From contig CAWBZI010000006.1 in the NCBI GenBank assembly GCA_963793265.1, positions 672,001 through 736,000 of the forward strand: a stretch of DNA of 64,000 nucleotides, in the 5' to 3' direction. The notes beneath the pieces were generated by a model. That model was not told the DNA's origin, searched no databases, and saw only the letters and a list, made by a program, of their open reading frames with translations. This document shows, one piece after another, positions 1-40,667 of this stretch. This DNA comes from an uncultured cyanobacterium (GTDB taxonomy: Bacteria; Cyanobacteriota; Cyanobacteriia; Phormidesmidales; Phormidesmidaceae). Within the stretch, counting starts at the first letter, position 1. Every line of letters starts with the position of its first letter. The position numbers were made by a program, and so were the translations under genes.

Positions 1-1538
1 GTTTCCTCTGTTGAGTGCCCAGATTGTCCAGATTGACCTTCGGGAGCCGCCAGCAAAATCCGCGAGGCCAAAAGCGGCGTCACAAACCGCGCCACCAGCG
101 TAGAAAACATCGTCGAAACCGCCACCGTCACCCCAAACGGCTGAAAAAACTGCCCCGGAATGCCGCCCATAAACGCGACCGGAATAAAAACAGCCACCAC
201 CGTCGCCGTTGTTGTCACCACGGCCAAACCCACCTCAGCCGAAGAATCAATCGCCGCCTGAGTCGGCGGCTTACCCATTGCAATATGCCGCTCGATATTC
301 TCAATTTCAACAATCGCATCGTCTACCAAATTACCCACCGCCAGCGTCAGCGCCAGCAGCGTCATACTGTTGAGCGAATAGCCCAGCGCGTTAATTACCG
401 TAAATGTTGGGATAATAGAAAGCGGCAGCGCTACTGCCGTAATCAGCGTTGTTCGCCAGTTTCGCAAAAAGCAGCCAACGACAACAACAGCCAGCACAGA
501 TCCCAGCAAAAGCGCCTCAATCGAAGCCTTATACGCCTCACGCACATCTGTTGCCCGCGTGAAAATAAGCTGTAGCTGCACGTCATCTGGCAAAGTCTCT
601 TCAAGCTGCGCGATCTCTTGAACAACACCATCTTCGACAGTTGCCAGCAAGCTACCGTTACTGCGAAATACGCCAAACGAAACCACCGGCTGAGAGTCTA
701 CAATTGCACCCTCACGAACTTCTGCGGGGCCGTCAGTCACCGCCGCTAAAGACTGTAAAGGGACTGTTTCGCCAGTCGGTAAGTCTATGCTGAGCGATCG
801 CAAAGCCGCCAAACTCTCTGCGGTACTATTCGCCCTGCCCAACGCCCGTACGCTTTGTTCCTGGCCCGACACTTGCGATCGCCCGCCCGGCAAATTACGG
901 TTAAATTCCTTAACCTGCTCATTCACCTGCGCAGCACTAATCCCATAAGCATTGAGCTGCCCAGCGTCTAGCGCCACGCTAATCTCTCGATCAACCCCGC
1001 CAATTCTCTCTACCTCAGCTACGCCCTTAACAGACATCAGCGCCGGACTAATCGTGCGATCAACCAAATCACTGAGCGCTTCAACAGGTTGCGTCTCGGA
1101 GCGAACCGCGTAGGTAAGAATCGCGCCGTCGTCGTAGCGCAACTGCTGAATGGTCATGCTTTCAGCGTAGGGGGCTAAGTCCTCACGAATGCGGGCGATC
1201 GCATCGCGCACCCCGTCCATAATCTCATCGGTTTCGGCCCCCAAATCAAACCGCACCGCCGTGTAGGCATAGCCGTCACTCACCGACGAATAAATCTCAT
1301 CGACATCGCCTAGCCCGGCAACCGCGTCCTCTACTTTTTTAGTAAACTGCGTCTCTAGCTCCTGTGGCCCCGCACCCGCATAAGCGGTTTCAATTGTGAC
1401 AATCGGCAGGTCAATATTAGGGTTAGCATCAATACCGAGCTGCAAAAAAGAGACAATGCCCGCCAGCGTCAGCACCAAAAACAGCACCAGCGTCGGTACC
1501 GGATTCCGAATAGACCAGCCAGGAGCGGTAATACTCAT
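1..1538 (-). CDS. RND efflux transporter permease (AcrB/AcrD/AcrF family), 5' part; runs off the left edge
   Basis: Not in the ORF track. Minus strand from ATG at 1538 reads MSITAPGWSIRNPVPTLVLFLVLTLAGIVSFLQLGIDANPNIDLPIVTIETAYAGAGPQELETQFTKKVEDAVAGLGDVDEIYSSVSDG, a typical AcrB N-terminus. It starts 2 nt after the stop of the membrane-fusion gene. Confidence 0.92.
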   Translation of the reverse strand, partial: MSITAPGWSIRNPVPTLVLFLVLTLAGIVSFLQLGIDANPNIDLPIVTIETAYAGAGPQELETQFTKKVEDAVAGLGDVDEIYSSVSDGYAYTAVRFDLGAETDEIMDGVRDAIARIREDLAPYAESMTIQQLRYDDGAILTYAVRSETQPVEALSDLVDRTISPALMSVKGVAEVERIGGVDREISVALDAGQLNAYGISAAQVNEQVKEFNRNLPGGRSQVSGQEQSVRALGRANSTAESLAALRSLSIDLPTGETVPLQSLAAVTDGPAEVREGAIVDSQPVVSFGVFRSNGSLLATVEDGVVQEIAQLEETLPDDVQLQLIFTRATDVREAYKASIEALLLGSVLAVVVVGCFLRNWRTTLITAVALPLSIIPTFTVINALGYSLNSMTLLALTLAVGNLVDDAIVEIENIERHIAMGKPPTQAAIDSSAEVGLAVVTTTATVVAVFIPVAFMGGIPGQFFQPFGVTVAVSTMFSTLVARFVTPLLASRILLAAPEGQSGQSGHSTEE

Positions 1539-1540: not shown

Positions 1541-2935
1541 CTACTGCACCGCGTCTACAGTATCACCATCTTGTAAATAGCTAGCGCCACCGACGATAAT
1601 CTGACTGCCTGCACTTACACCAGAGAGTACTTCAACGGTTGGCTGCTCAGCTTTCGATGTCGTTGAACTAATTTGACTGGCCACCTCAACCGGATTCGCC
1701 TGCACTTTATTGTCGGAGCCGAGCGTATATACCAACGTTGTGCCGTCAGGCTGAGCGATCGCCGCTGCCGCCGGAATCACCACACTTCGCCGCCGCCCAG
1801 TCACCATCTCGGCCTGCAAAAACATCCCTGGCCGTAACTGACGCTCATCGTTAATCGAAACTCTCACCGTCGCCTGCCGACTGTCAGCATCTAAAGTCGG
1901 ATCTATCGTGCGAACGCTACCCTGCACCGTTAGTTCCGAATTCTGTTCAGGCGAGCGATCAGCCGCCGCGCTCATCACCACAGGCGCACCTACCTGAATC
2001 TGTTCGAGCTGCGCCTGCGATGGCTCCAAGGCTAGCTCCAACTGTCCGTTTTCGATCAGGCTATACAAAGGCGTCGAGGCTGAGGCCGTATCTCCGATGG
2101 TCATTAATCGTTCGGCAACAATGCCATCAGTAGGGGCCGTAACGACTGTTTGTGATCGCTGCGCCTGAATCTTATTAATCTCCGCTAGCCGACTAGCAAC
2201 ACTTGCCCGAGCGCTGTCAATATTAGCCGCTGCTACTGCCACATTCCCTTGAGCCGTCGCCGCCTCAATCTGGCGCGTACCAAGCTGTTCCTGGCTGACC
2301 GCACCCTCACGATACAGCGAACTGTAGCGACTCACGTCAACGCCTGCGGCCGCTTGTAGTACCTGGGCTTGGGCAAAGGCGACTTCCTGTTGTTCTAGTT
2401 CAGCTTGAGCCTGAGCAAGATTTGCTTCAGCTTGAGCAAGATCGGCCTGTAAAAGGCTGCTGTCTAGTATGGCGATTATCTGTCCGGTTTGGACGCGATC
2501 GCCCGCCCTCACCCTCATCTCTACAATCGGCAACCCGCTCACCGCAGGCGTCACCCGCAGCAAGTCCTTTGGCACCACAGTTCCCGTCAGCGACAGCGAA
2601 CTTTCAACTGTCGCAAGCTGAGCCGTTTGCAGCGTCACGCTTTGAGCAGGCGCGCGATCTGTTGCAGCAGTCAAAGCTGTATTAGAAGCTGTATCGACAT
2701 CTGCCTGTTCTGCCTGGTTTTCTTGCACCTGAGCCACCAAAAACCGTCCGCCGCCAAAAGCGAGCCAGGATACAGCTAATCCTAAGAAGAGACTTTTTGG
2801 CCCCCAAAGGAGACGAACTTGTGTGCCTATTCGACCAATTAGAGAAGGTTTGTGAATCGGCGTTCCTAATTGAGAGATGGGACGAAGCACTAGATTCTCG
2901 TCAAAGTCTTTTGAGGAATGTTTTGGGTGGCTCAA
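1541..2935 (-). CDS. RND efflux periplasmic adaptor (membrane fusion protein)
   Basis: N-terminal TM segment, lipoyl-like halves (VRAGDRVQTGQIIAILD; VTAPTDGIV), coiled-coil hairpin, LRPGMF motif; adjacent to the AcrB-type gene. Exact start uncertain. Confidence 0.9.
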   Translation of the reverse strand: MSHPKHSSKDFDENLVLRPISQLGTPIHKPSLIGRIGTQVRLLWGPKSLFLGLAVSWLAFGGGRFLVAQVQENQAEQADVDTASNTALTAATDRAPAQSVTLQTAQLATVESSLSLTGTVVPKDLLRVTPAVSGLPIVEMRVRAGDRVQTGQIIAILDSSLLQADLAQAEANLAQAQAELEQQEVAFAQAQVLQAAAGVDVSRYSSLYREGAVSQEQLGTRQIEAATAQGNVAVAAANIDSARASVASRLAEINKIQAQRSQTVVTAPTDGIVAERLMTIGDTASASTPLYSLIENGQLELALEPSQAQLEQIQVGAPVVMSAAADRSPEQNSELTVQGSVRTIDPTLDADSRQATVRVSINDERQLRPGMFLQAEMVTGRRRSVVIPAAAAIAQPDGTTLVYTLGSDNKVQANPVEVASQISSTTSKAEQPTVEVLSGVSAGSQIIVGGASYLQDGDTVDAVQ

Positions 2936-2983: not shown

Positions 2984-5659
2984 CTAACCAACAAACTCGA
3001 ACGTATTCGTATCGAACAAGCTCAAATCTTCCTCATCTTTAATCACACCAACCAAATCGTTTTGATAGAAGATAGCAGTGCCGTCTTTAACCCCCTTCAC
3101 GTCCTGACCTAGAACGTAGTCACTAGCGCTACCCCGCAGGCGGATGCGATCGCCCTCTTTCGCTTTAAAGTCATCAACCAGGCCATAGTCACTATTGCCA
3201 CCGCCTAAATAGAACACATTATTCGCATCACCTAAAACAAACGTATCAGCACCCTTCTCACCCTTCAGCTTATCTTGCTCGCCTTGGCCAAATCCACTGC
3301 TCGTATCAACCCCAAAGAGCAAATCGTCGCCGTCATCGCCTTTAATCTCATCTGAGCCTAGCCCGCCAAATATGGTGTCGTTGCCTTTCGTGCCGTCTAC
3401 TTTCTCACTCTTGTCGCTGCCTTGAACGGTATTAGCGCTTCCAGGCGCGGCGGTTAAAGCCTGGCCTGGCGCTGTATTCCCTAACTCAGTTCTAAGCGCG
3501 TCAGTAAAAGAGCCCTCTCTATCAGGATCGAAGATAGACCCCAGGCCGCTAGCAACATTGCCCTGATCAAAAAAGCCAAGGCCCGTAGAAACGTTGTTAT
3601 CACCGCCAGGAAGCCTTTCGTCAGTGACAAAAGATCCGGTAATATCGGTTACCTGAATGTTGCCGCGCCCCGTTACAACCGGATCAACACCCTTCTGCTT
3701 ACCCACAAACTTTTCCAGCTTGCCCTTCTCACTATCCAAGCGTGCGACCCAGCCGTCAATCGATTCGCCCGCCTGCTTCTTACCGCCCAAAGAGCCCTCC
3801 GTAAAGCCCGTGACAATCACGCTGCCTCGATCGTCTACAGCCACGCCAGTTGCATAGTCGGCTTTCTCTTTTGCGCCCACCTGCTGAATCCACTGGTCGT
3901 TCAAATCACTGTCAAACTTAGCGACAAAAGCATTCGTATCACCGTTGCTAGCGCCCTTGCTGTCTTTGCCTTTCCCGCCCAGCTTGCCAATGGTATAGCC
4001 CGTCAAATAAACGTTGTCCTGCGCGTCTACTGTCAAATCGCTAAAGTACGCACCATCGTCATCTTGAGAACCAATTTGCTTGGTCACAAGCTGAGTACCC
4101 TCGGGCGTAAACTTAGTCACCCACACGTCAAAGTTCTCAGAATCTGCGTTTGACTTATCGCCCAAATTGCCGTTCGTCCAGCCCGAAGCAAAGACGTTAC
4201 CCTGACTATCTGTATCAACCGCCCAGCCAAAATCTAGCCCCTCATCAACGCTACCAAACTGCTGTACCCACTGCACGTTCCCGGTCGGATCGACCTTGGC
4301 TAGATACGCGTCGTACTTCAGCAGCAGCCGCGAAGGGTCAGACTCTTTTGAGAGCCCTTGAGTCCAACCCACTACGTAGGAGTTGCCCGCCTCATCTACG
4401 GCTAAGTCGTAGCTTTCATCAAAAAATGGCGTAATGCTCAGCGGAAAAGGAGCCTCTGGATCGCGAATTTGAGTGAACCAGCCCTGAGCACCCGAGTTTT
4501 TATCGAAGGTGCCAACCCAAGAGTCATCTTGAGCTGAAAAGTCGAAGATTTCTCGGTTCTGGTTTTCTTTAATCGCCAGGCCCGAAACAAAGACGCGATC
4601 GCCCTGTACCTGCAAGCCAAACGCCGTACTCGCAAACGCTGGATTAGCCGTATCGCCTGCCAGTACGCCAGGATTAAACTGCTGGCCCCAAATAAAATCA
4701 CCACTGCCAGCATCGAGCTTCGCAACCCAGGCATCCTGCTCTGCTGACTTCAGCGAGCCGACTAAGTTACCGCTGGTATCGCCTGCTAAATAGACGCCGC
4801 CCTCATTGTCAGTTACCACTTCAAAGGCGCTATCGCTACCCGCCGAGCCAATCTGACGCAGCCAAAGCTGATTGCCGTTATTGTTGTACTTGGCAATCCA
4901 CACGTCGCCGTTACCCTGGTTTGCACCGCCCAGGCTACCGCTCGTAGAGCCCACCACATAGATATTGCCTGCATCGTCGATCGTGGTGTTTTGTCCCTGA
5001 TCAACACCGGGCGTTGTGAGCTGAACAATGTCCTTATCACCGCCTTTTTTGGCTTTATCGCCAACAAACCTGAAAACGTCTTTATCCTTAATGTCGTAGT
5101 CTTGCTCAGGCGTAGAAACAATAAAGCCCACTAAATCAGGCGCAATGCCACCGTTATAAAAAATAGCTTCGCCGCTTACTGGCTGAGCAAGCCCGTCCAC
5201 CTGAAGATCGTTGGTTTCAAAGAGAAAATATTCGTCAGACTTTCCGTGCAACTGAATTACGTCATCGGTGGCATCGAAGTCGTAGATAACTGCAAATTCA
5301 TTAGCACCGACGAGGTTACTGGTGAATAAAGTAGACTGATCAGAAGCCGTGTAGAAGGGTCTGCTTTCGTCACCGAGTACGAAGCGATCGCTCCCAACAG
5401 AAGGAATATTTTTATCTAAGATGCCGAAGGGTCGAGTCTCGTTTGAGATACCGACGATAATCTCAAACTCATCGGCAGAATTATCAAACAGATCGCCAAA
5501 GAGAAAGTCGATATTGGTTTCAGGGTAGGTCGCCGCCGGATCGAAGGCATAGATAGTATCGCTACCGGAGCGGCCAAAAACAGCCTCAAACTCAGCAGTG
5601 TTAGAGCCACCTACTAAGTCGCTAGCGGGCGTAAGAAGAGAGACGCTAAAATTTTCCAT
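2984..5659 (-). CDS. CylK/BrtB-like protein: N-terminal Ca-binding domain, SBBP-repeat beta-propeller, C-terminal RTX region
   Basis: Repeated blades (DDAGNIYVVGSTSGSL...DVWIAKY; DSQGNVFASGWTNG...DVWVTKF), N-terminal DRFVLGD...FY...FAVIYDFDATDDVIQLHG segment, GGxGxD repeats at the C-terminus. Lies in a cluster with a CylC-type halogenase. Confidence 0.75.
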   Translation of the reverse strand: MENFSVSLLTPASDLVGGSNTAEFEAVFGRSGSDTIYAFDPAATYPETNIDFLFGDLFDNSADEFEIIVGISNETRPFGILDKNIPSVGSDRFVLGDESRPFYTASDQSTLFTSNLVGANEFAVIYDFDATDDVIQLHGKSDEYFLFETNDLQVDGLAQPVSGEAIFYNGGIAPDLVGFIVSTPEQDYDIKDKDVFRFVGDKAKKGGDKDIVQLTTPGVDQGQNTTIDDAGNIYVVGSTSGSLGGANQGNGDVWIAKYNNNGNQLWLRQIGSAGSDSAFEVVTDNEGGVYLAGDTSGNLVGSLKSAEQDAWVAKLDAGSGDFIWGQQFNPGVLAGDTANPAFASTAFGLQVQGDRVFVSGLAIKENQNREIFDFSAQDDSWVGTFDKNSGAQGWFTQIRDPEAPFPLSITPFFDESYDLAVDEAGNSYVVGWTQGLSKESDPSRLLLKYDAYLAKVDPTGNVQWVQQFGSVDEGLDFGWAVDTDSQGNVFASGWTNGNLGDKSNADSENFDVWVTKFTPEGTQLVTKQIGSQDDDGAYFSDLTVDAQDNVYLTGYTIGKLGGKGKDSKGASNGDTNAFVAKFDSDLNDQWIQQVGAKEKADYATGVAVDDRGSVIVTGFTEGSLGGKKQAGESIDGWVARLDSEKGKLEKFVGKQKGVDPVVTGRGNIQVTDITGSFVTDERLPGGDNNVSTGLGFFDQGNVASGLGSIFDPDREGSFTDALRTELGNTAPGQALTAAPGSANTVQGSDKSEKVDGTKGNDTIFGGLGSDEIKGDDGDDLLFGVDTSSGFGQGEQDKLKGEKGADTFVLGDANNVFYLGGGNSDYGLVDDFKAKEGDRIRLRGSASDYVLGQDVKGVKDGTAIFYQNDLVGVIKDEEDLSLFDTNTFEFVG

Positions 5660-5914
5660 GGTTTCCGATTGAATAAGACCCGGCGGGCCAGGTTGAAAGT
5701 CTTTAGAAGAGGGCTGTCGCGCTTGGAAAAGTATGCTACCTCTGTTAGGGACTGCAAAAGTATGGCGATAGTTTCCTTAAAGTAAGCTTTTTTGCGGTGG
5801 AAATTTAATAAAGTTATGTATCAAATAAATGACTGCATTGGTTTTAGAGTCAAGGCTTTCTTCGCTGCTGAGGATCTAAAGATTAAATAAACTGTTTCAC
5901 CGTTATTTGCTGAA

Positions 5915-5999
5915 GCCCTCACCCCAGCCCTCTCCCAAAAGGAGAGGGAGCCGGATTCAAAGTCCTTCTCCCTTGGGGAGAAGGATTTAGGATGAGGGC
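5915..5999. repeat. Short composite palindromic dispersed repeat (REP-like)
   Basis: Outer arms GCCCTCA...TGAGGGC enclose two hairpins, CCCTCTCC-caaaa-GGAGAGGG and TCCTTCTCCC-ttg-GGGAGAAGGA. Confidence 0.7.
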
Positions 6000-6088
6000 C
6001 TCGATGTGTGTAGATTACTGAGTCCTCATTCTTAATAAAAATCGAAAAACCATTCAATAGCATACTTTCGCAGGCTCTTTACATACTT

Positions 6089-6976
6089 TTATGGTGATAA
6101 AAAAGTCATCACAAAGGCCAAACAAACCACGGCATTGCCCACCGGAATAAAAAAGTTGTCGGTGCCTCTTGGGGCTACTAGCTCGATTACGGTTGTGAGC
6201 GTGGCGATCGCCAGCGCTAAGCACCACCAGGGCAGCGGCAGTTGGTTAAAGCTAGCCACTAGCAGTAGCGGGATGAGGCTGCCGAAAAAGACTGCACTTG
6301 TGCCTAATACTGACTTACGGTTGATTTGGCCGATGCCCCAAACGTGTAGCTTTTGCTTGCCCCAAGTAGTGCCTACTAGCTCACCGAGCGCGTCGCCTAT
6401 CGTCAGCGGTAAAAAGACAAAGAAGGAGAACAGCACTAAGTTAGCCGGGTCGGCAACGCTGCCGCGAGCGAGATGATCAATCACTGCTAGCGGCAAAAGG
6501 TTCAGAAAAGAACAGCGTGCGGCAAATAGATTTTTGCGTCCGTAAACGCCATCTCGAATACGGCTAGAAGCGCCGTACATAAGCCCCGCCAGGCCATATA
6601 TTTTGTTTGAGTGATAGCTAATAATGCTCAGCCCCAGCACAAAAATTTGATAGGCCAGCGTTGCGATTAAGGCCACCTCTGTGTCTTTGATCACTAAGTT
6701 AAGAATGGCGAGCTGCCAGAAGCCAGCGACGATATGTAGCAGCTTACGAGAGAGTCCATCTACTACGCACAGCTTGCGATCACCATAGCGATCAACAAAG
6801 TAGTCGAGGTTGAAGTAGTGGGAGCGATCGGAGAACACGAGCTTGCGATCGCCCGAAGGCATCCCGATATAGGCCATCAGCTTCCACTTAAACCAGGCAA
6901 ACGCAGGATAAAGAATCAGAAGTTCTACGCCGAAAATAACGACATATATCAGCGCAATCGAAGAGAGATTTATCAT
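6089..6976 (-). CDS. Membrane CTP-dependent polyprenol/diacylglycerol kinase family protein (dolichol/phytol kinase-like)
   Basis: RKLLHI, GDALGELVGTTWGK, RKSVLGT and GTDNFFIP motifs; multiple TM helices. ATG at 6976 overlaps the MFS stop (TGATG), so it is preferred over the track start 7081. Confidence 0.75.
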   Translation of the reverse strand: MINLSSIALIYVVIFGVELLILYPAFAWFKWKLMAYIGMPSGDRKLVFSDRSHYFNLDYFVDRYGDRKLCVVDGLSRKLLHIVAGFWQLAILNLVIKDTEVALIATLAYQIFVLGLSIISYHSNKIYGLAGLMYGASSRIRDGVYGRKNLFAARCSFLNLLPLAVIDHLARGSVADPANLVLFSFFVFLPLTIGDALGELVGTTWGKQKLHVWGIGQINRKSVLGTSAVFFGSLIPLLLVASFNQLPLPWWCLALAIATLTTVIELVAPRGTDNFFIPVGNAVVCLAFVMTFLSP

Positions 6977-8568
6977 CAAAGAGAAGTCATTGTTTGAGTA
7001 GAACCGTCCGCATTTGGACTCGAACGAATGCAGGTAAAGCTCAGCCCTGCGCCGACTAATAGCGCGATGCCACAGGCCCACACCACGCTATGCAAGCCAG
7101 AAACAAACGCCTGATGAATTGTCTGCTCTAGGGTGACTAAAGAGACGGTTGAAGCATCACCTAAAGCCGCGAGCAGGCGATCAGGGCGGGTCGCCCCATG
7201 GCCCAGCGCTTCAGCAACAACAGCTTGCGCGGCGGCAGGCGCTAGGCCCAACTCAAAGAGCGATCGCCCCAAAGAGAGCCCGAGCCCCTGCGTAAACACG
7301 CTGCCCTGCACCGCAATTCCCAAAGCGCCCCCCAAGCGAGTACTGGTGTTCAACAAAGCGGCGGCAACCCCCGACTGGGCGGCGGGGGCACTCCCCATGC
7401 CCGCAGCCGTGAGCGGAGAGAGCGTGAAGCCTACGCCAAATCCTACGAGCATAAGCTGCCAAAGCATAGCGATGTAGGGCGTGTTTGCCTGCACCTGCCA
7501 GAGAGAAAGGACACCGACAGCCGCGAGTAAAAAGCCTGCTGTGATTGCTTTTCGCCAGCCTAGACGGGCGGAGGCGTAGCCCGAGACTATTGAGGCTAAA
7601 ATAAACGCGCCGTTAAGCGGTAAAAATCGTATGCCCGTCGCGACGGCTGAGTAGCCCTGTACCTGCTGTAGGAACAAGCTAAACAGAAATAACAGGCTCA
7701 CTAGCATAAAGAACAATAGGGCATTTACCACAATCGCACTGGCAAATGTCGGCTGTGAAAATAGCCTCAGCGGCAGCATCGGGTAGGCGCTGCGAGATTC
7801 GATGAAGATAAAGGCAGCAGCACTGCTGAGGGTGAGTAGTCCTAAGATGAGCGATCGCCCCGAGAACAAGCTTGCGCCCTCGCTGCCAGTCAGCATGGTC
7901 ACCAGTGTCGCCAGCGTGACGACGCTTAGCACCATCCCAGGGAAATCTAACCGCCGTTTTTGCAGCGATCGCCGCCCCATCTTTCTGCTCATCGGCACCG
8001 CCCGGCAAGTTAGCCAAAAGGTCGCTACGCCCAAAGGCACGTTCAGAAAAAAGATACTTCGCCAGCCCAAACTATCGACCAAAACGCCACCTAAAGCAGG
8101 CCCAACAATCAGCGCCAACCCCGATACGCCCGACCAGATACCAATCGCCTTAGTTCTCTCTTTTGGGTTAGGAAACACATCGGACAAAATTGCGAGCGAT
8201 GTGGGCAGTAGAGCCGCTGCGCCAATGCCCTGTAACAGGCGTCCTGCGATCGCCATTTGCCCGCCTGCCGCCAGCCCCACCCAAACCGAAGCGCCGACAA
8301 ATACCAGCAGCCCCAACAAAAAGACTTGCCTGCGCCCGTACATGTCCCCTAACAAACCCGCAGGCAGCACCAAACAAGCAATCGGCAACAGATAGCCATT
8401 CAGCATCCATTGCAGCCCAGTAACAGACAGGCCCAAATTAGCCTGCAGGCTTGGCAGCGCCACATTCACCACCGTATCGTCAAGCGCTGACATGCCCAAA
8501 GCAAGGCACATAGCTATCAGGGTCATTGTTTGAGTTTTGGTAGAAACACCTTCAGCCGTAAGCGTCAT
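6976..8568 (-). CDS. MFS drug/metabolite exporter, DHA2 (14-TM) type
   Basis: LDDTVVNVALPSL, GLLGDMYGRRQVF, GRLLQGIGAA, GPALGGVLV motifs. ATG at 8568 overlaps the upstream TGA (ATGA). Confidence 0.92.
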   Translation of the reverse strand: MTLTAEGVSTKTQTMTLIAMCLALGMSALDDTVVNVALPSLQANLGLSVTGLQWMLNGYLLPIACLVLPAGLLGDMYGRRQVFLLGLLVFVGASVWVGLAAGGQMAIAGRLLQGIGAAALLPTSLAILSDVFPNPKERTKAIGIWSGVSGLALIVGPALGGVLVDSLGWRSIFFLNVPLGVATFWLTCRAVPMSRKMGRRSLQKRRLDFPGMVLSVVTLATLVTMLTGSEGASLFSGRSLILGLLTLSSAAAFIFIESRSAYPMLPLRLFSQPTFASAIVVNALLFFMLVSLLFLFSLFLQQVQGYSAVATGIRFLPLNGAFILASIVSGYASARLGWRKAITAGFLLAAVGVLSLWQVQANTPYIAMLWQLMLVGFGVGFTLSPLTAAGMGSAPAAQSGVAAALLNTSTRLGGALGIAVQGSVFTQGLGLSLGRSLFELGLAPAAAQAVVAEALGHGATRPDRLLAALGDASTVSLVTLEQTIHQAFVSGLHSVVWACGIALLVGAGLSFTCIRSSPNADGSTQTMTSL

Positions 8569-9806
8569 GGGGCTTGCCTGGCAGGAGAGCATAATACGGG
8601 AGCCGCTTCACTCGCCTGACTATCAGCCAAACGCGCCTGTAAAAGATCTAGCACCTCAAAAATGCCGTTGTTCTCAAGCGCTGCTGCATTCGCCCGATAG
8701 CGCTCCAAGGTCGAACCATCGAGTAACTGTTCGACCGCTTTGGGCACCTGCTTAAAACTCTTAAGCACAATACCTACCGCTTTCTCTTTTACCCAGTCGG
8801 TGTTGTAGCGCTCGTGAATCAAAGTGGCTCTATTACACTCTGTAATCACCGGCAGATTCATCACCAGCGCTTCGCTCAGGCTACCGGGGCCAGGCTTACC
8901 AATAAAAAAGTCCGAGAGCTGCATGTAGTAGGGCATATCTTCGGTAAAGGCAACCACGTGCCGCTGCTGCTCTCCCGGTAGCTGCTTTAGCGCGTCCGCT
9001 AGCGCTTCGTTGCGGCCACACACAAAAATAAGCTGGAGGTCGCGCTCAAATCGCTCTAGACTTTCGGCAATATCCACCATCACCTGAGCCCCGTTACCGC
9101 CAAACATCACAATGCCCGTCAGCTTGTCAGCAGCGAGTCCCAGCTTTTGCCGCTCAGCAGCAATGTCTAGCTCAGGGCACTGATAGAACTTGGGGTGAAG
9201 CATCATGCCCGAAGATTTCATGAGAAGAGAGTCATCGACGCCTAGCGTTTGGGCTTGTGCGATCGCCTTCTCAGTCGCGCAAACAGTCGTACAGCTTGCC
9301 TCTGGCTCTAGCCAAAAAGCCGGTGGGTAGTCAGCCAAATCACCCATCACCGTCACGTAAGGCACGCCCGGCCTGGCCGCTTCAAGACTTTTCGAGAGCC
9401 CTTTGTTGTACAGCGGCATCACCGACACCACCAAATCAGGCTGTTGCTTGCGCCAGTGCTGCTCAAAAAACCGAAAGCCCACGTCATAGTTCAGCGCCAC
9501 CATGAACTTATTAAGCCGCATTTTCAGCGGCCACATCCAAGTCCAGCCGCTCTTGAGCATCAGATTGTACAAATCATGGCCGCTCATGCCAAACAGCTCA
9601 TAGGCATTTTGAATCTCATTTTGCGCGGTCAGCTCAGTGATGATCTCATCCATATCTGTCGCCTGAAATTCCCAAGGCAGATCCCTTTGTTCAGCCGCCG
9701 CTTTTAGCGCTCGGTAAGCCGCATAGTGTCCGCCACCGCCTTGCCCTGTGACAACATTTACTTTTAACTTTTTTTGAGAGACGGTTGAAACCATCGGTTG
9801 TATCAT
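8565..9806 (-). CDS. GT28 / MGDG-synthase-like glycosyltransferase
   Basis: GGGHYAA N-terminal loop, QPDLVVSVMP, VMFGGNG, FVCGRNEAL, DFFIGKPGPGSLSEAL. Confidence 0.88.
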   Translation of the reverse strand: MIQPMVSTVSQKKLKVNVVTGQGGGGHYAAYRALKAAAEQRDLPWEFQATDMDEIITELTAQNEIQNAYELFGMSGHDLYNLMLKSGWTWMWPLKMRLNKFMVALNYDVGFRFFEQHWRKQQPDLVVSVMPLYNKGLSKSLEAARPGVPYVTVMGDLADYPPAFWLEPEASCTTVCATEKAIAQAQTLGVDDSLLMKSSGMMLHPKFYQCPELDIAAERQKLGLAADKLTGIVMFGGNGAQVMVDIAESLERFERDLQLIFVCGRNEALADALKQLPGEQQRHVVAFTEDMPYYMQLSDFFIGKPGPGSLSEALVMNLPVITECNRATLIHERYNTDWVKEKAVGIVLKSFKQVPKAVEQLLDGSTLERYRANAAALENNGIFEVLDLLQARLADSQASEAAPVLCSPARQAP

Positions 9807-9906
9807 TGTTTTACCCTATGAGTCGAATTACTACTACACATCTTGTCTCAGAGCCCCAAAGTGGGGACGGGGGCCAGCAAATAACTAATTTTTCTCTAAA
9901 AACTTG

Positions 9907-11046
9907 TCATACCAAAGCCGGTTGCCGCGCAATCTCTTTTTCAAAGATCCCCAGCGCTCGAATAACCGCCTGATCCATGTTGTAATACTTGTAATCGCCC
10001 AAGCGGCCTGCAAACAAAACGCTGCCGTTGAGCTTTTTAGCGTCTTTAAGATAGAGAGAAAGGCGATCGCGATTTTCAGCTCTTGGAATGGGATAATACG
10101 GATCGTTTCGCCCTGGAATATACGCCTGTGGAAACTCTCTTACAAGCGTCGTCTTTGGCGAAACCTGGCCCGTCAGATACTTCTGCTCAGTAATACGAGT
10201 AATGTCATAGTCGTTAGGATAGTTCACCGTTCCTACTTCCTGATAAAACGCCTGATCCAACGTTTCAAAACGAAAGTCAATACTGCGGTAGGGCATTTCC
10301 CCATGAGCATAGTCAAAGAAGGCGTCAATCGGCCCGGTGCACACCGCTCGATTAAAAGAGATATCGTCTATCACCTCTTTATAGTCCGTATTAAGTAAAA
10401 CCTTGATGTTGGGATGATTGAGCATCTGCCCAAACATTTCGGTGTAGCCCTGCTTTGGCATCGCCTGATAGGGATCTTGAAAATAGCGATCGTCCCGGCT
10501 GATATAAATCGGTACCCGCGCCGTAACGCCACTATCTAGCTCCTCTGGCCTCAGGTTCCACTGCTTTTGCGTATAGCGCAAAAATACATTGTCGTAAATG
10601 TAGTCGGCCAAAAAGCCCAGGTCGCCGCTACTAGACTCCTTGAGCTTCAATATCGGCACCTTTTTACCAAAGCCAAAGTTTTGCAGCAAAAGCCCTTCTA
10701 GCTTTTCGGCATAGCTCGGTGGAAACAGCGCGTACAGCGTATTGAGGTTAAACGGAATCGGTACTTTTTTACCCTCAACGACGCCTAGCACATGATGATA
10801 GTAAGGTCGCCACTGCGTAAATTGAGACAGATAGTCCCACACTTCTTTAGACTTTGTGTGAAAAATGTGCGGCCCGTATTTATGAATTAAATGGCCGTGC
10901 TCGTTGTAGTAGTCATAGGCATTTCCCCCAATATGATTGCGCTTTTCAACAATTAGCACCCGCTGCTCAAGCTGAGTTGCAATCCGTTCAGCGAGCACAC
11001 AGGCCGAGTAGCCCGCCCCAATTATCAACCAGTCAAATTTCATCAT
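9907..11046 (-). CDS. glf: UDP-galactopyranose mutase
   Basis: IIGAGYS...EKRNHIGGNAYD...HKYGPHIFHT, RDDRYFQD, PYYP, GRLGDYKYYNMDQA signatures. Confidence 0.96.
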   Translation of the reverse strand: MMKFDWLIIGAGYSACVLAERIATQLEQRVLIVEKRNHIGGNAYDYYNEHGHLIHKYGPHIFHTKSKEVWDYLSQFTQWRPYYHHVLGVVEGKKVPIPFNLNTLYALFPPSYAEKLEGLLLQNFGFGKKVPILKLKESSSGDLGFLADYIYDNVFLRYTQKQWNLRPEELDSGVTARVPIYISRDDRYFQDPYQAMPKQGYTEMFGQMLNHPNIKVLLNTDYKEVIDDISFNRAVCTGPIDAFFDYAHGEMPYRSIDFRFETLDQAFYQEVGTVNYPNDYDITRITEQKYLTGQVSPKTTLVREFPQAYIPGRNDPYYPIPRAENRDRLSLYLKDAKKLNGSVLFAGRLGDYKYYNMDQAVIRALGIFEKEIARQPALV

Positions 11047-11070: not shown

Positions 11071-12708
11071 CTAACGAAACGCCACCGTAACCACGTTTGA
11101 ATCCCTTTGGCCATCCGACCGTTCGACGACCGGCTCATCCACCGCCCACCCCGCCGCGCCCGATAGCCGCTGCACCAGATGCTCGGCAACTCGAATAGCG
11201 TTTGCAACAATTGTCAGCGTCGGATTCAGCGCCGCACTAGACGGAAAAAAGCTGCCGTCTACCACATAGAGATTGTCTACATCGTGCGTTTGGCAGTTTA
11301 GATCAAGCACCGAAGTCTGCGGATCTTCTCCAAACCGGCAGGTGCCGCACTGATGTCCGACATCCTTCAGCTCCATTTCTGTTGTGAAGGTCACCGACAG
11401 CGGATCGAGAGACTTTAGCACGCCCTTCCAGCGCTCAATTAGGCGATTAAACGCCTCGTCGTTATTTGGCGTATACTCCAACACAATTTTGCTCTCTTCA
11501 CCAGCACCCTCTAGCCGAATTCGATTGTTTAAATCGGGTAAATCTTCTCCGATTAAAAACCAGGGTGTCGTTCTAGCCGCCGCTGCCTTGAAAATTGCCA
11601 TTGGAATTAGCTTGCTAGGAATAAACGGCGGACTGCTAGTAGCCGCGCGCTCAGCGTTAACGTCTCCAAGCGTTTGAATGTGACCCATAGGATAAGGAAA
11701 GTCTGCCTCGCCCCAGTAATAGTCATTAATCGCCATAGTTTTTGAATAAACTGTCGGGTTCGGCCTGAGCCCCAGTGAAACTAGCGCGCAAATCTTGTGA
11801 CGCATGAAGTTACGCCCAACCAGATCAGAACTGTTGGCTAGGCCATTCGGATGCTGTTCGTTAGCAGAGCGCAAAAGCAGCACCGCCGAGTTGAGCGCGC
11901 CTGCTGAGACAACAACAATATCGGCAGAGAATAAGTAAGTCTCGCCGTTTATTTGAGTCTCTACAGCCGTCACCTTTTTACCCGTCGCGTCCGTGTGCAG
12001 CCGGGTCACCTTAGCGTGCGTCTTAAGCGTGACGTTGGGATACATCATCGTCGGCCTGATCCCATTCACATCTCCGTCAGCTTTGGCATTCACCATGCAA
12101 GGAAACCCATCGCAGGTTTCACAGCGCACGCACTCACTTAAAGATCTATTTGCCTCATTGAGCTTCAGGCCCAAAGGCTGATAGGCAGGATGAAGTCCTT
12201 TCGCCTTGAGCGCTTCACCAATTTCAGCAATCCGGGGCTCGTGGCTAATCGGTGGGAACGGGAACGGTGAATCGCTTGGGGGTTCAGTGGGGTCAGTATC
12301 GCGCAAGCCGTGCACATCAAAGAGCTTTTCGGCCTCGGTGTAATAGGGCTCAAAGTCGCTGTACTTTAGCGGCCATTCAGGCGAAATGCCGCCCTTGTGC
12401 TCCACTTCATCAAAGTCTCTTTCGCGCAGGCGGTAGTGGGCGCTACCGTAAAACTTAGTGTTGCCACCGACAAAATAGTGCGTAAAGGGGCGAAAAGGAT
12501 TGCCGTCTTTGTCGTACCATTCTTCGGCAGTGCGGTAGCGATCGCGCCCATACACTGCTTCCGCATCCCAATTCTCTTTTTCTCTCGGCAAAAAACCACC
12601 GCGCTCTAGCACCAGCACCTTTTTCCCACTCGGCGCAAGCACTCTAGCCAAAGTTCCCCCGGCGGCTCCAGTGCCGATGATGATGATGTCGTAGTCGGTG
12701 CTTTGCAT
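11071..12708 (-). CDS. GMC family FAD oxidoreductase
   Basis: IIGTGAAGG FAD loop, VGGNTKFYG, HQCGTCRFG, NLYVVDGSFFPSSAALNPTLTIVANA. Confidence 0.92.
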   Translation of the reverse strand: MQSTDYDIIIIGTGAAGGTLARVLAPSGKKVLVLERGGFLPREKENWDAEAVYGRDRYRTAEEWYDKDGNPFRPFTHYFVGGNTKFYGSAHYRLRERDFDEVEHKGGISPEWPLKYSDFEPYYTEAEKLFDVHGLRDTDPTEPPSDSPFPFPPISHEPRIAEIGEALKAKGLHPAYQPLGLKLNEANRSLSECVRCETCDGFPCMVNAKADGDVNGIRPTMMYPNVTLKTHAKVTRLHTDATGKKVTAVETQINGETYLFSADIVVVSAGALNSAVLLLRSANEQHPNGLANSSDLVGRNFMRHKICALVSLGLRPNPTVYSKTMAINDYYWGEADFPYPMGHIQTLGDVNAERAATSSPPFIPSKLIPMAIFKAAAARTTPWFLIGEDLPDLNNRIRLEGAGEESKIVLEYTPNNDEAFNRLIERWKGVLKSLDPLSVTFTTEMELKDVGHQCGTCRFGEDPQTSVLDLNCQTHDVDNLYVVDGSFFPSSAALNPTLTIVANAIRVAEHLVQRLSGAAGWAVDEPVVERSDGQRDSNVVTVAFR

Positions 12709-12746: not shown

Positions 12747-13589
12747 CTAAACAGTCAGCACTGCCTTATCAGCTTCCTTCTCCATTTGCCTTTGCGCACA
12801 GTCTTTATTTGTCTCCACAACGCCCACCTTGCGCAAAATGCGATCGCTCAACTCAGGCGAAAACTGAGAAAGCGCTACAAATACCTTATTCGTCAAACCG
12901 TCCAGCATCACCTCGGGCTGATTCTGCAAAATCACCTGAACCACCACATCCGCAACAGCCTCAGGCGGCGTCACCTTCATCCCCTCAGGAGCCTCTGTTT
13001 CCAAAGCGTGAAACATCCCCGCGTCCGTAATCCCAGGGCACACCACCGAAACATTTACAGGCGAATCCGACAGCTCCAGCCGCACCCCTTCCGACCAGTT
13101 AATCAGCGCCGCTTTCGTCGCAGAATACACGCTGTTAAAGGGCGCGCCTCGCTTACCGGCTCCCGAGGAGATGTTGACAATGTGCCCTGAAGCTCTAGCC
13201 AACATGTCAGGTAGGAGCAGGCGAGCCAGCGCCATCGGAGCCAAAATATTAGTTGCCGTCATCGTTTGAATGTCGTCTAGCGAATAGTTTTGAAAGGCTC
13301 GAAACTTCTCAATAGCCGCGTTGTTGATCAGCACGTCTACTGACCCCATGCGCTGTTCTATTTCACTGACTAAATCAGGCATGTCTTGGATGTTTTGCAG
13401 GTCGAAAGGGAGCGCGATCGCCCGGCACCCGCTGTCTTCCAAAGTTTGAACAAGGGCATCCAAAGGCGCAGGCGATCGCCCCACGCACACCACATTCGCC
13501 TTTTGATCAGCTAGAGCCTTTGCGATCACACTCCCAATACCGCCAGCCGCGCCCGTCAATAAAACAGTTTTTTGAGCCAGTGTTTTCAC
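12747..13589 (-). CDS. Short-chain dehydrogenase/reductase
   Basis: TGAAGGIG, INNAA, catalytic YSATK. Confidence 0.92.
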   Translation of the reverse strand: MKTLAQKTVLLTGAAGGIGSVIAKALADQKANVVCVGRSPAPLDALVQTLEDSGCRAIALPFDLQNIQDMPDLVSEIEQRMGSVDVLINNAAIEKFRAFQNYSLDDIQTMTATNILAPMALARLLLPDMLARASGHIVNISSGAGKRGAPFNSVYSATKAALINWSEGVRLELSDSPVNVSVVCPGITDAGMFHALETEAPEGMKVTPPEAVADVVVQVILQNQPEVMLDGLTNKVFVALSQFSPELSDRILRKVGVVETNKDCAQRQMEKEADKAVLTV

Positions 13590-13594: not shown

Positions 13595-14770
13595 CTATCT
13601 CCGAGAAAGATTGAGTTCTACAGGTTGAGCCACTTCAGGTTGCCAGAGGTCGTCACTAGAAAGAATCTCTTCTAAAATGTCTACGACTTCAAAAGCGGCC
13701 CGGTTACGATAGCCGTTCACACGGGCCTGCACTTGGGCAAACCTCTCAGGCTGCAACAGCGCCGCTAATGCCTCGTCTATCTGCCCAAAGCTAGACACCA
13801 CCGTACCAAAGTCGTTTTGCCTCAGCCAGTCAGCCGTGGCCCGCTCTTGAAAAAGGGTCATCACGTTGTTGCATTCGGTGACCACAGGCAGGCCCAGTGC
13901 GATCGCCTCACTCACCCCAACGCTCCCCGGCTTGCCTATAAAGAAATCAGCCGTCTTCATCAAAGTCGGTAGCTCCTTAGTAAAGCCTTCTACGTGCTTG
14001 ACATAGCGAGTCGGCAGCTCTCGTAGCGCCTCAGCAAGCCGCTGATTACGACCGCACACAAAAATAAGCTGTAGCGGCTGATTGCCCTCGTTTAGCCGCT
14101 GAGCAATCTCCAACATTTCCTGCGATCCGTGGCTACCAAAGCACACCAGCCCCGTTGGCAAATCAGGGTGCAGCCCTAGCCTCTGCCGTTGGGCCACCGG
14201 ATCGACCGTGACCGGCTGATCGTAGCGGGGATGAATCACCACGCCCGAGGTATGAAAAAGACTCTCATCCGCATAGCCCATTGCTTTCGCCTGCTGTGCG
14301 ACCGTAGCAGAAGGGCAGATCATGAGCTGGTCTTGAGGCTCGATCCAGAAGTGTTCAGGGCAGTCGGCAAAGTCTGTTACAGAGGTGATAAAAGGCGTGC
14401 CCGGCAGCGCTTTCCCGACGCTTTCGCACAGCACCCGATTCATCAGGGGCATTAATGAAACCACCATATCGGGCTGCTGCTGCTGCCAGTATTTTGTCAG
14501 CTTCTTCATCCATATGCTGTGCATAACCTGAATGCGAGCTTTGAAAATCGGCACAGAAATTGGATCGTTGATCCGCTTGGCCCACTTGCGTTTGAGAATC
14601 CAGGTGTTGTAAAAGTGCTGTGCAAACGTGGTGTCTAAAACATCTTCGAGCACTTCCACAATTTCGACCTGCCAGGGCAAACCGCGACTCTCAATTACTT
14701 CTTTTAGCGCATTAGCGGTACTGCGATGCCCTGCGCCCATATCGTAAATTGCGAAGATTACTTTTTTCAT
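13595..14770 (-). CDS. Second GT28 / MGDG-synthase-like glycosyltransferase
   Basis: MGAGHRSTA, QPDMVVSLMP, FVCGRNQRL, DFFIGKPGSVGVSEA; clearly paralogous to 8565-9806. Confidence 0.88.
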   Translation of the reverse strand: MKKVIFAIYDMGAGHRSTANALKEVIESRGLPWQVEIVEVLEDVLDTTFAQHFYNTWILKRKWAKRINDPISVPIFKARIQVMHSIWMKKLTKYWQQQQPDMVVSLMPLMNRVLCESVGKALPGTPFITSVTDFADCPEHFWIEPQDQLMICPSATVAQQAKAMGYADESLFHTSGVVIHPRYDQPVTVDPVAQRQRLGLHPDLPTGLVCFGSHGSQEMLEIAQRLNEGNQPLQLIFVCGRNQRLAEALRELPTRYVKHVEGFTKELPTLMKTADFFIGKPGSVGVSEAIALGLPVVTECNNVMTLFQERATADWLRQNDFGTVVSSFGQIDEALAALLQPERFAQVQARVNGYRNRAAFEVVDILEEILSSDDLWQPEVAQPVELNLSRR

Positions 14771-15669
14771 AATGAAGTTAGAGGAGTCGGTTGTTTTACG
14801 GGAGCAGGCAGCGGAACTTCTTTGCAGGCTGTTGATTGGTTGGCCTTCTGACGATTGCTTTGAGTGATACCAAGCCAGTCGTTAGAAAGGTCGGCTAGCA
14901 CAGGAAAAATCTGTTCTAGCGCCAGCAGCAGTCGAGTCACAGCTTCTATCCCCCAGTTTTGATTGACAATTACCTCACGGCGGCGATGCAATACCGCATT
15001 GAGAACAGCTTTTGCCACGGTTTGAGAGTGCGATCGCCCCGCCAAAAAAGGCGCTTCTACCCCGGTATCAGCCAGCATCCCCTGGTCAACTACATACCCT
15101 GGACAAATGGCAGACACGCCAATTTGCGAACCAGCAAGCTCCTGGCGCAAAGAGTGATTCCACATCAACAGACCAGCCTTACTTGCCGCATAGGCGCTGT
15201 CAAAGGGATGGCCTTTCTTACTTGCCAAAGAGGCCATATTCACCACATGCCCCTCACCGTTCATCTGCGGCAACAGCAGCCGAGTCAGCGCCATCGCCGC
15301 CAGCAAATTCACCCGAACCACGCGCTCTATCTCGTCTAATCCATAGTCTTGAAAGGCTCGGTAGATTTCAATACCAGCATTGTTGATCAAGATATCAACC
15401 CGGCCCGACGCCATGTTCTTAGCCCGCTGATCAATCTGCCGGGAAAGCTCAGGTATGCGAGCAGTCTCGTTGAGATCGAAAGCAATACCGACCGCCTGCA
15501 CACCATATAGCTCAACGCTTGCTTGCCAGCTATCTAGCTGAGATTGAGATCTGGCAATGCCGATAATGTGGACACCCTGCTGCGCAAAAGCTCTCGAAAT
15601 CTCTAAGCCAATACCGCGCGAGGCTCCGGTCAATACGGCTGTTTTTCCTGACAGTGATAGTCTGTTCAC
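14767..15669 (-). CDS. Short-chain dehydrogenase/reductase
   Basis: TGASRGIG, INNAG, YAASK; paralog of 12747-13589 (IEIYRAFQDY vs IEKFRAFQNY). Confidence 0.92.
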   Translation of the reverse strand: MNRLSLSGKTAVLTGASRGIGLEISRAFAQQGVHIIGIARSQSQLDSWQASVELYGVQAVGIAFDLNETARIPELSRQIDQRAKNMASGRVDILINNAGIEIYRAFQDYGLDEIERVVRVNLLAAMALTRLLLPQMNGEGHVVNMASLASKKGHPFDSAYAASKAGLLMWNHSLRQELAGSQIGVSAICPGYVVDQGMLADTGVEAPFLAGRSHSQTVAKAVLNAVLHRRREVIVNQNWGIEAVTRLLLALEQIFPVLADLSNDWLGITQSNRQKANQSTACKEVPLPAPVKQPTPLTSL

Positions 15670-17582: not shown

Positions 17583-17927
17583 CTAAATCTCAAAGAGGTC
17601 GCTATCGTCAGTAGCGAGTTCTTCAACAATGTGAGCCGAAAGAGAGTCGATGGTAGGACAGTTCCAAATGACGAGCGGAGAAATTTCAAGACCGAAGCGC
17701 TGCTTGCCCTGGGTGGCGATCGCCATTGCCTGCACGGAATCTAAACCATAGCTGTGAAAGGGCGATCGCGTATCGATATCATCCGCCTCTATGCCGAGCT
17801 GTCCGGCCACTTGTTCAGCGAGCCAGTCTTGAATATCAGCTAAGTCCATTGGCAAACTTTCACTGAGTCCAGGCACGGTAGGAGAAGTATTTTTAACGCT
17901 TTGCTGAGCTGTTGATGGAGTAGTCAT
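17583..17927 (-). CDS. Standalone acyl carrier protein with acidic C-terminal docking motif
   Basis: IQDWL...FHSYGLDSVQA phosphopantetheine site, PTIDSLS, C-terminus DDSDLFEI. Start could be 17978. Confidence 0.88.
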   Translation of the reverse strand: MTTPSTAQQSVKNTSPTVPGLSESLPMDLADIQDWLAEQVAGQLGIEADDIDTRSPFHSYGLDSVQAMAIATQGKQRFGLEISPLVIWNCPTIDSLSAHIVEELATDDSDLFEI

Positions 17928-17943
17928 GGTCGTAAAAACACCG

Positions 17944-21939: not shown

Positions 21940-21944
21940 AGACT

Positions 21945-22208
21945 CTACGATTCTCCTAAATAACAAACCAAGCTTTCCACTGTCGGATAGTCATACAGCA
22001 AAGTAGGATCGACTTCTTTACCTAGCCAGTCTTCAAGATCTCCGGTCAAGCCGATGGCCGCCGAAGAGTCTAAGCCATAGCTATCAAAGGGCACTTCGGT
22101 ATCAATCTCATCAGAGCTTATTTCTAAAAGTCCTGATAAATAGGCAACAATCCACGCTCTAATCTCTTCATCTGTAACGTTAGAAACCTGTCTTTCTTTA
22201 ACTTCCAT
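21945..22208 (-). CDS. Acyl carrier protein (FAAL partner)
   Basis: IRAWIVAYL...FDSYGLDSSAA...PTLLYDYPTVESL. Confidence 0.93.
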   Translation of the reverse strand: MEVKERQVSNVTDEEIRAWIVAYLSGLLEISSDEIDTEVPFDSYGLDSSAAIGLTGDLEDWLGKEVDPTLLYDYPTVESLVCYLGES

Positions 22209-39203: not shown

Positions 39204-39574
39204 GGGATTATCCTCCTTGAAAACACGCTGGCAAAAACACTGCAAGGCAGCAGGTTAAATAACGAAAAAATACCAGGACTTAAAAGCTTATATAAATACG
39301 GGCTTAAAAACATGTAGAGGCGATCGCCAATCACAGGAGAATTTCACAAGCTACACGCACAAGTAAATTTCAGAGGCCAATCCCGTAGCGCACAAAACAG
39401 CGCATTACGCATCGATATTTCTATGCCTAAAGATAGATGCCTGAATTACGCTAATAATAGTCGCTTTTACTCAGCACAACAGAACATGTAAAACGCCTCT
39501 TTAATCAAACATTTAGCAACAGATTTATGCGCATAACAGAACGATTGCGTTTCGACACACAACAGAAATATTAT

Positions 39575-40573: not shown

Positions 40574-40667
40574 GTTTGCAGAGCCCTCACAAGCTCTCTA
40601 TTTCAAGAGTTCTTTTAGGCTGTTGGCTAAGATTCCCAACCAAGTCGATACAAACTATATTTAAGAC

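Follow-up and report, generated by a model that had tools for sequence, protein, structure and literature searches.

Three enzymes of the CylK family had a described reaction in the literature searched. CylK is the Friedel-Crafts alkylase of cylindrocyclophane biosynthesis and makes C-C bonds (PMC8916777), BrtB O-alkylates fatty acids in bartoloside biosynthesis and makes esters (PMC7081238), and NglO, published in 2024, forms ethers, yielding oligomers of up to eight units (PMC10849952). NglO belongs to the nostochloroside (ngl) cluster of Nostoc punctiforme ATCC 29133, which was picked for study as one with CylC and CylK present and CylI absent and whose products are chlorinated C21 alkanediol glycolipids (PMC10849952). 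Here we analyzed a window of 64,000 nucleotides from the genome of an uncultured cyanobacterium of the Phormidesmidaceae, in which a gene on the minus strand (2984..5659) codes for a protein that, judged by its sequence, belongs to the CylK family and is orthologous to neither CylK nor NglO. By analogy with NglO, we consider it probable that this enzyme O-alkylates a hydroxyl group and thereby cross-links, through ether bonds, a chlorinated alkanediol galactofuranoside made by its own gene cluster.

The open reading frame begins with an ATG codon, in agreement with the starts of its homologues, and codes for 891 residues. The N-terminal Ca-binding-type domain, SBBP propeller and RTX tail named in the original prediction were all borne out by Pfam and by the AlphaFold model as compared in VIA. 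Pfam matched SBBP in five stretches (E 6.6e-32) and HemolysinCabind at residues 755-782 (E 6.9e-11). The relatives of the protein in the PDB were the CylK structures (7RON, 7ROO and 7FH6-8; PMC8916777), with E values of ~1e-87 for the single sequence and 3e-140 by profile. Foldseek searches with the model (pLDDT 88.0, pTM 0.83) retrieved CylK at E 1.6e-40 to 3.9e-38, the next match being at 6e-08, and VIA superposed residues 1-653 onto residues 76-662 of CylK with a Z score of 47.8 (rmsd 2.1 Å, 552 residues aligned), while unrelated propellers reached at most Z 32.8 and matched the propeller portion only. The model thus has the fused N-terminal Ca-binding beta-roll and seven-bladed propeller that mark the CylK family, and the match to CylK runs across both domains. 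A generic SBBP adhesin or surface protein was ruled out by the CylK-type N-terminal domain together with the Arg/Tyr pair described below; the LipL53-type SBBP model of NCBIfam scored 162 against a cut-off of 400. Searches of the genome yielded no other SBBP gene, and a scan of its contigs gave one locus. A full-length search of 401 genomes of the phylum, with two candidates scored per genome, gave four matches and was not used for counts.

The beta-roll domain comprises residues 1-205 (5045..5659) and lacks the first ~75 residues of CylK. It is followed by the propeller (residues ~208-650; 3710..5038), as delimited by Pfam, the model and the CylK superposition, by a clade-typical linker with an LPxGDN motif and two predicted helices (residues ~655-735; 3455..3697), and by Pfam-detected RTX repeats with a C-terminal beta-roll module (residues ~740-891; 2984..3442) that likely serves as a secretion or surface-binding tail. 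The architecture had been described as that shared by CylK and BrtB; for CylK this holds for the two domains, whereas the RTX tail is a feature of NglO, whose C-terminal RTX domain has no counterpart in CylK (PMC10849952). The N-terminal beta-roll is akin to the C-terminal domain of the same protein (33% identity over 123 residues) and also to the tail of an RTX protein encoded at 24595..25845, to which the RTX tail is 37.5% identical. A circular permutation, with the C-terminal linker standing in for the N-terminal helices of CylK, found no support (hhalign probability 0.9%, E 0.06).

In CylK, the chloride pocket is formed by R105, Y473, F499 and T84, and D440 and E374 contact the resorcinol (PMC8916777). 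These positions were mapped through a stand-in (L160) that aligns nearly end to end with CylK of the PDB (1301 bits) and whose gene adjoins a type III polyketide synthase (PKS) gene. By alignment, the chloride pocket is intact in the window protein: T10, R30, Y449 and F477 correspond to T84, R105, Y473 and F499 of CylK. The halide-binding Arg/Tyr pair is therefore kept, Arg30 (5570..5572) matching Arg105 of CylK and Arg84 of NglO, and Tyr449 (4313..4315) matching Tyr473 and Tyr460. Glu415 (4415..4417) occupies the position of the nucleophile-activating base, Asp440 in CylK and Glu428 in NglO; R84, E428 and Y460 are the residues reported for NglO (PMC10849952). The other resorcinol contact, E374, is T345 in the window protein, and H391 and L438 of CylK are L361 and F413. 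We aligned 110 of the 120 homologues listed, at ~44-74% identity. R30, E415 and Y449 occurred together in 108 of them, the remaining two being gapped at R30, and the Glu at position 415 was present in all 110. Active-site loops specific to the clade precede both E415 and Y449, the motif ExDPSRxLLKYD is almost invariant, and Arg444, close to the active site, appears invariant-like. Together with the fold and with the motifs of the neighboring CylC-type halogenase, these residues argue, at the level of sequence and model, that the protein is an alkyl-halide enzyme of the CylK family, as had been predicted.

A Glu at the base position has been reported for both NglO (PMC10849952) and BrtB (PMC8916777), and the enzyme might accordingly be imagined to act as BrtB does, alkylating a carboxylate, either of a free fatty acid or of a sugar acid made by a GMC or ALO oxidase, with the chlorinated glycolipid. 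BrtB uses free fatty acids, for which no cluster gene would be required (PMC7081238), a GMC oxidoreductase is present in the cluster with an ALO-type oxidase just beyond the window, and the nearby Arg444 could replace the Arg of BrtB. However, BrtB carries at CylK position 374 an Arg proposed to bind the carboxylate (PMC8916777), where the window protein has Thr, 108 of the 110 homologues have S, T, G, A, P or N, and the NglO type has Gly; furthermore, the GMC gene is found in just 9 of the 19 related clusters sampled. We therefore regard esterification as unlikely, and O-alkylation of a hydroxyl as the better account of this active site.

Consistent with the original prediction, Pfam revealed no resorcinol synthase in the 64-kb window. 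PF00195 proved a weak probe, as it recovered only two out of three genuine type III PKSs at E 1e-5, and PF02797 and direct tblastn were therefore added; with both families and three protein queries, no type III PKS was matched in the genome, which is 98.97% complete. The sole match to the C-terminal domain of 3-ketoacyl-ACP synthase III (KAS III) lay between plsX-like and fabD-like genes, and in a search for DarA/DarB a DarB-like query matched FabH only, at 20%. These type III PKS and DarB-like searches brought to light no resorcinol pathway in other parts of the genome. The novelty of a resorcinol-free enzyme had nevertheless been overstated. CylI neighbors only 10 of 53 (19%) candidate enzymes bearing Arg105 and Tyr473 (PMC8916777), so that a CylK homologue without a resorcinol pathway is the usual case, and the NglO precedent, which the original prediction had missed, uses a hydroxyl.

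To place the enzyme, we built a maximum-likelihood tree from 33 of 64 core rows (LG+G4 without mixture model, unrooted, with neither an outgroup nor BrtB). The window protein fell into a clade of its own with 16 rows (support 100/100). The NglO type (100/99), its neighbor in the unrooted tree, and the CylK type (100/100) formed clades apart from it. A clade joining the window protein with CylK was rejected by the AU test (p 0.008). A quick tree of the 64 rows, from which the truncated row L194 was excluded, was concordant. The enzyme is 34% identical to the NglO type overall and 40% in the core, while members of the NglO type share 56-89% among themselves.

Several variants of these enzymes came to light. 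A further CylK-like clade of eight rows (L175-L182; SH-aLRT 100) is immediately adjacent to a CylC gene; L176 also has a DarB-like gene, PfaD-type genes and NglG as neighbors, and L175 and L182 have two different CylK-type genes each. In G573, a 1740-residue protein (L158:14059-19281) comprises a pair of NglO-like units in tandem (58% and 54% identical to the NglO-type core), with the T/R/E/Y/F residues intact in both. Six proteins (P0081, P0089, P0107, P0117, P0119 and L072:7061-10144) have the first ~290 residues of a DHA2-type major facilitator superfamily (MFS) transporter fused before a clade enzyme devoid of RTX repeats, which ties these clade enzymes to export.

We next compared the surroundings of the gene with ngl, for which a cluster with the published gene order and a CylK homologue carrying Arg84, Glu428 and Tyr460 (L083/L084) served as stand-in. 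All genes of the window cluster are on the minus strand, running from 25845 to 3, and it contains the ngl-type core of fatty acyl-AMP ligase (FAAL), acyl carrier protein (ACP), CylC, PKS, NglG and short-chain dehydrogenase/reductase (SDR) in parallel order; it is thus a variant of ngl. Identities to the stand-in were 55% for FAAL, 65% for ACP, 44% for the halogenase, ~50% for the ketosynthase (KS), 54% for NglG and 49% for the first SDR, falling to 27% for the second SDR and 23% for the GMC oxidoreductase. Identity with the published ngl cluster and orthology with NglO were ruled out by these values, by the cluster content and by the separate clade.

At the head of the cluster lies the RTX repeat protein gene (24595..25845, Pfam); an RTX gene, Npun_R3354, likewise adjoins the published ngl cluster (PMC10849952). 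It is followed by the FAAL gene (22550..24436) and by a first ACP with an LDS motif (ACP1, 21945..22208), identified by Pfam and motif. The CylC-type dimetal halogenase (20560..21966) has QExxH at residue 152 and HxxDExxH at 311, motifs taken from PMC12101540, and is 44% identical to the ngl type and 45% to the cyl type. Next come a single PKS (17944..20472), a second LDS-type ACP (ACP2, 17583..17978; Pfam, motif), an NglG-like protein with a docking domain, a CoaB-like middle part and a class II aldolase fold, proposed to release the chain (15666..17540), and SDR1, which is NglH-like and predicted to reduce the ketone to a 1,2-diol (14767..15669). The sugar genes code for two glycosyltransferases of family 28 (GT28), a (13595..14770, resembling monogalactosyldiacylglycerol synthase) and b (8565..9806), both recognized by Pfam and NCBIfam, for a second SDR that travels with the GMC gene in related clusters (SDR2, 12747..13589; Pfam), for the GMC oxidoreductase, predicted to oxidize a sugar (11071..12708; Pfam, NCBIfam), and for a UDP-galactopyranose mutase (9907..11046) that scored above the TIGR00031 cut-off and was found as a single copy in the genome. 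A DHA2-type MFS exporter (6976..8592; Pfam, NCBIfam) and a membrane protein resembling dolichol/phytol kinases (6089..7081; Atlas lead, 0.94) precede the enzyme gene; a Pfam scan of the latter protein gave no match, and its true start is probably downstream of 7081. The cluster ends with an RND membrane-fusion protein (1541..2935, Pfam) and the N-terminal part of an RND efflux pump (3..1538) that has 1225 residues in the genome.

Co-occurrence was analyzed at two distances. Among 46 genomes of the same genus, a close orthologue of the enzyme (at least 64% identity in the N-domain) was found in 9, and these were exactly the genomes with a close CylC orthologue (at least 75%), as the predicted partnership implies; the copy of the enzyme gene in G419 is fragmented. 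We then fetched both cluster halves from 20 genomes seeded with NglG and having clusters of the FAAL-CylC-PKS-NglG kind, setting aside ngl-order and Pfa-like clusters. The clade enzyme was present in 19 of the 20. These 19 clusters contained CylC and PKS throughout, SDR1 and GT28 in 18 each, and the mutase in 16, with the SDR2-GMC pair in 9, the kinase-like gene in 5 and DegT in 2; none had a type III PKS or DarB-like gene. The kinase-like gene is thus accessory in related clusters. The minimal cluster, in G420, comprises RTX, FAAL, ACP, CylC, PKS, ACP, NglG, SDR1, one GT28, mutase, enzyme, membrane-fusion protein and RND genes.

Starting from the established fold, residues, cluster content, conservation and separate clade, we propose the following pathway. 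By analogy with ngl, FAAL would load a fatty acid onto ACP1 and the CylC-type enzyme would chlorinate the acyl chain at a mid-chain position. The KS, with its dead acyltransferase (AT), would pass the chloro-acyl chain to ACP2 with zero or at most one extension, and the NglG-like aldolase would release it as a hydroxyketone that has gained one hydroxymethyl carbon from a sugar phosphate, an enediolate/retro-Claisen course being suggested by class II aldolase chemistry. SDR1 would then convert the ketone to the 1,2-diol, the GT28 enzymes would attach galactofuranose supplied by the mutase and further tailored sugars, and the MFS and RND pumps would send the lipid out. With its RTX tail and Ca-dependent fold, the CylK-like enzyme would act at or outside the cell surface, where R30, Y449, T10 and F477 would hold the C-Cl bond while E415 deprotonates the hydroxyl for SN2 attack, linking the monomers by ether formation.

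The single PKS is one departure from ngl. Its KS has a Cys-His-His triad with HAVGT in place of HGTGT, its degenerate AT domain lacks the GHSxG serine, and there is no ketoreductase (KR), dehydratase, enoylreductase or thioesterase domain. A single short PKS was found in 14 of the 19 clusters, KR being absent from that of the window and from six others scanned and the remainder being too short to hold one; the other 5 clusters have an NglD-like KR module and a C-Q-H KS. HAVGT was present in all 17 other single PKSs examined, and the AT serine in none. A KS tree placed the single PKSs weakly with first-module KSs and not with NglF. A HAVGT-type KS with a dead AT may mark a non-elongating, hand-over KS. 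The ngl cluster has three PKSs: NglD (KS-AT-KR-ACP), the fully reducing NglE, and NglF with a C-Q-H KS (PMC10849952).

The docking domain-aldolase protein NglG has been put forward as the release enzyme of ngl and has several hundred homologues (PMC10849952). The C-terminal half of the window homologue (624 residues) adopts a class II aldolase fold (Z 14.0, rmsd 3.5, 191 residues aligned; Foldseek against class II aldolases, E 1e-05). H514, H516, H574 and D487 are invariant in 100 homologues, and all 10 active-site positions tested are common to the window protein and the ngl type. Its middle domain resembles CoaB (Z ~10), Cys540 is invariant, and an Atlas search with the protein gave no usable match. 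Among 301 genomes of one heterocyst-type family, 124 had an NglG match. Many NglG-like genes follow Pfa- or heterocyst-glycolipid-like PKS genes, with no CylK-like gene seen in the stretch fetched (L078, L080, L086, L092), the spread suggesting a general, uncharacterized chain-release chemistry.

These features bear on the identity of the nucleophile. For NglO, the authors favor a KR-derived mid-chain hydroxyl, O6, with O2 still possible (PMC10849952). As the window cluster has no KR domain to generate such a hydroxyl, the nucleophile is most likely the C2 hydroxyl of the diol or a hydroxyl of the sugar. The same can be argued for the family as a whole, because some clusters of the clade have a KR module and others do not, unless one extension followed by SDR reduction takes the place of the KR step. 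If the enzyme does O-alkylate a hydroxyl, the diol C2 hydroxyl is the leading candidate, at just short of an even chance, a sugar hydroxyl is a credible second, and the mid-chain hydroxyl is doubtful. Of the nucleophiles originally listed, the sugar (or diol) hydroxyl is live, the carboxylate is possible but the Arg of BrtB is absent, and phosphate and enolate find poor support.

Another nucleophile or geometry would lead to a cyclic ether or macrocycle, to hydrolysis of the chloride, or to alkylation at the nitrogen of an amino sugar, at a phosphate or at an enolate carbon. The clade's own loops before E415 and Y449 would fit a change of this sort, a DegT aminotransferase gene lies just outside the window and the kinase-like gene within it, and the aldolase step would yield an enolizable ketone. 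However, the kinase-like and DegT genes are so patchy (5 and 2 of the 19 clusters, with neither in the minimal one) that they cannot supply the nucleophile of the whole family, and phosphate and amine were disfavored in that role on this ground. The presence of SDR1 after NglG in 18 of the 19 clusters implies that the ketone is reduced, which argues against an enolate, and NglO gave no macrocycles in the reaction as described (PMC10849952). Such outcomes are collectively improbable, and etherification through a hydroxyl is retained.

Several points weigh against it. The product and activity of the window cluster are predicted by analogy, and with core identities of 40% and 37%, the chemistry of NglO and CylK is not transferable by orthology. 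GT28 enzymes are not known as galactofuranosyl transferases. The KS triad is kept, and one extension with SDR reduction could still yield a mid-chain hydroxyl. The RTX tail is missing from many clade members, and no type I secretion ABC gene lies within the cluster. The release role of NglG is itself put forward as a hypothesis in the ngl paper, in which the hydrophobic pocket of NglO is also argued to disfavor a nucleophile beside the sugar (PMC10849952). Co-occurrence with NglG is built into the table of 19 clusters, which was NglG-seeded, and the genomes are related. Finally, G413 (95% complete) has a tenth, more distant clade member with intact key residues among housekeeping genes (L157:10893-12875) and no CylC or NglG match, which speaks against an obligate link, and a copy in G577 has no cluster genes nearby.

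These two copies are what would be expected if the enzyme were uncoupled from the halide of the cluster and acted as a Ca-binding surface or lipid-binding protein, leaving the chlorinated glycolipid as the end product. The G473 cluster, in which the 34 kb retrieved held no gene for the enzyme, points the same way, as does the lack of CylC in 11 of 53 organisms with Arg/Tyr enzymes (PMC8916777). Nevertheless, R30, E415 and Y449 are retained at ~44-74% identity, the gene accompanies the halogenase cluster in each of the two families sampled, and it is the sole SBBP gene found in the genome. We give uncoupling little credence compared with ether cross-linking of the cluster's own product.

Immediately to the left of the window lies a convergent operon (G000:C6:660243-669859; L198:4343-13959, plus strand) with genes for a GT28, a DegT aminotransferase, a GT28-ALO oxidase fusion (876 residues), two MFS transporters and an FG-GAP protein. 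As these gene types also sit inside the related clusters L061 and L075, the cluster probably extends ~12 kb past the window, a hint that the product may carry an amino sugar and be glycosylated as many as four times. Contigs from macroalgal and sediment metagenomes (three public runs, two studies) cover the cluster in long stretches that differ little from it; one run may be the source sample, and the coverage therefore argues only against an assembly artefact. Contig depth was raised, with loose ends, in the intergenic stretches 5920-6000 and 9820-9900, likely dispersed repeats, and a short open reading frame overlapping one of them (5821-6063) is probably no gene. Promoter and terminator scans stayed at chance level (15 versus 14.6 and 26 versus 22.8). 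Elsewhere in the window, 37095-53006 holds ordinary nitrogen-storage genes (ArgZ-like, PutA, cyanophycin synthetase and cyanophycinase-like). Another CylC-like gene of the genome (29%; G000:C1:1006566-1007702; L193:8552-9721) has Rieske proteins on its flanks and corresponds to the catalogued Rieske-type cluster (PMC8406957), with no CylK-like gene nearby. In single-PKS/NglG clusters of G423 (L052/L192) and G419 (L188/L189), GT28 is replaced by a sulfotransferase and the CylK-type enzyme is a different one, which points to sulfated variants of the chloro-lipid.

NglO has already shown that a CylK homologue can occur without a resorcinol pathway and use a hydroxyl as nucleophile. New here is a clade distinct from NglO, mostly accompanied by UDP-galactopyranose mutase and GT28, with a KR-less single PKS in the window cluster. 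In the literature covered, which left most subscription papers outside its scope, we found neither this mutase/GT28 version of the cluster nor a fourth characterized CylK-type enzyme. Supplementary cluster drawings of PMC8406957 and PMC7081238 may depict it; the accessible parts of PMC11264947 and PMC10088813 held nothing further on cluster or enzyme, and four organism terms had no match in the supplements of the CylK paper as far as available, the clade possibly being among its 286 tree tips (PMC8916777). As the KR step behind O6 is missing, the cluster product directly tests whether the family uses a diol C2 or a sugar hydroxyl. It is a tentative, rather unlikely idea that this clade is a widespread group of surface enzymes that O-alkylates a hydroxyl of galactofuranose or a tailored sugar with the chlorinated lipid chain, giving a sugar-linked polyether coat or macrocycle; if true, this would add a fourth type of reaction to the CylK family and open an enzymatic way to sugar-ether glycolipids, a product type likened to nigricanosides in the NglO paper (PMC10849952). 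Deletion of nglO altered aggregation and motility (PMC10849952), and since members of the clade are frequent among filamentous cyanobacteria, they may produce a surface polymer that has so far escaped notice. With its 12 genes, the minimal G420 cluster offers a small system in which to study the so far unexplained chain release by NglG, and an enzyme that forms ethers selectively from unactivated secondary alkyl chlorides would be of biocatalytic use.

Set against the known systems, the window enzyme shares with NglO the order of N-terminal Ca domain, propeller and C-terminal RTX module as well as the Arg/Glu/Tyr triad, but has additional loops and a ~80-residue linker. Both clusters are devoid of a resorcinol synthase, have GMC and second SDR types and are framed by a head RTX gene and tail exporters. 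They differ in having one KR-less PKS versus three PKSs, GT28 enzymes and UDP-galactopyranose mutase versus a GT4-type transferase, epimerase and methyltransferase, and MFS/RND versus DevBC-type exporters. With CylK, the enzyme has in common the two-domain fold, the T84/R105/Y473/F499 chloride pocket and a CylC-type partner; in contrast, identity is ~37-38% (core 37%), D440, E374, H391 and L438 are replaced by Glu, Thr, Leu and Phe, the first ~75 residues are lacking, an RTX tail is present and the genome has no CylI-type PKS match. With BrtB, which also makes C-O bonds, it shares the Arg/Tyr pair and the base-position Glu as described for that enzyme, from which, by the same description, it is set apart by the absence of Arg at 374 and of DarA/DarB matches beyond FabH in the genome.

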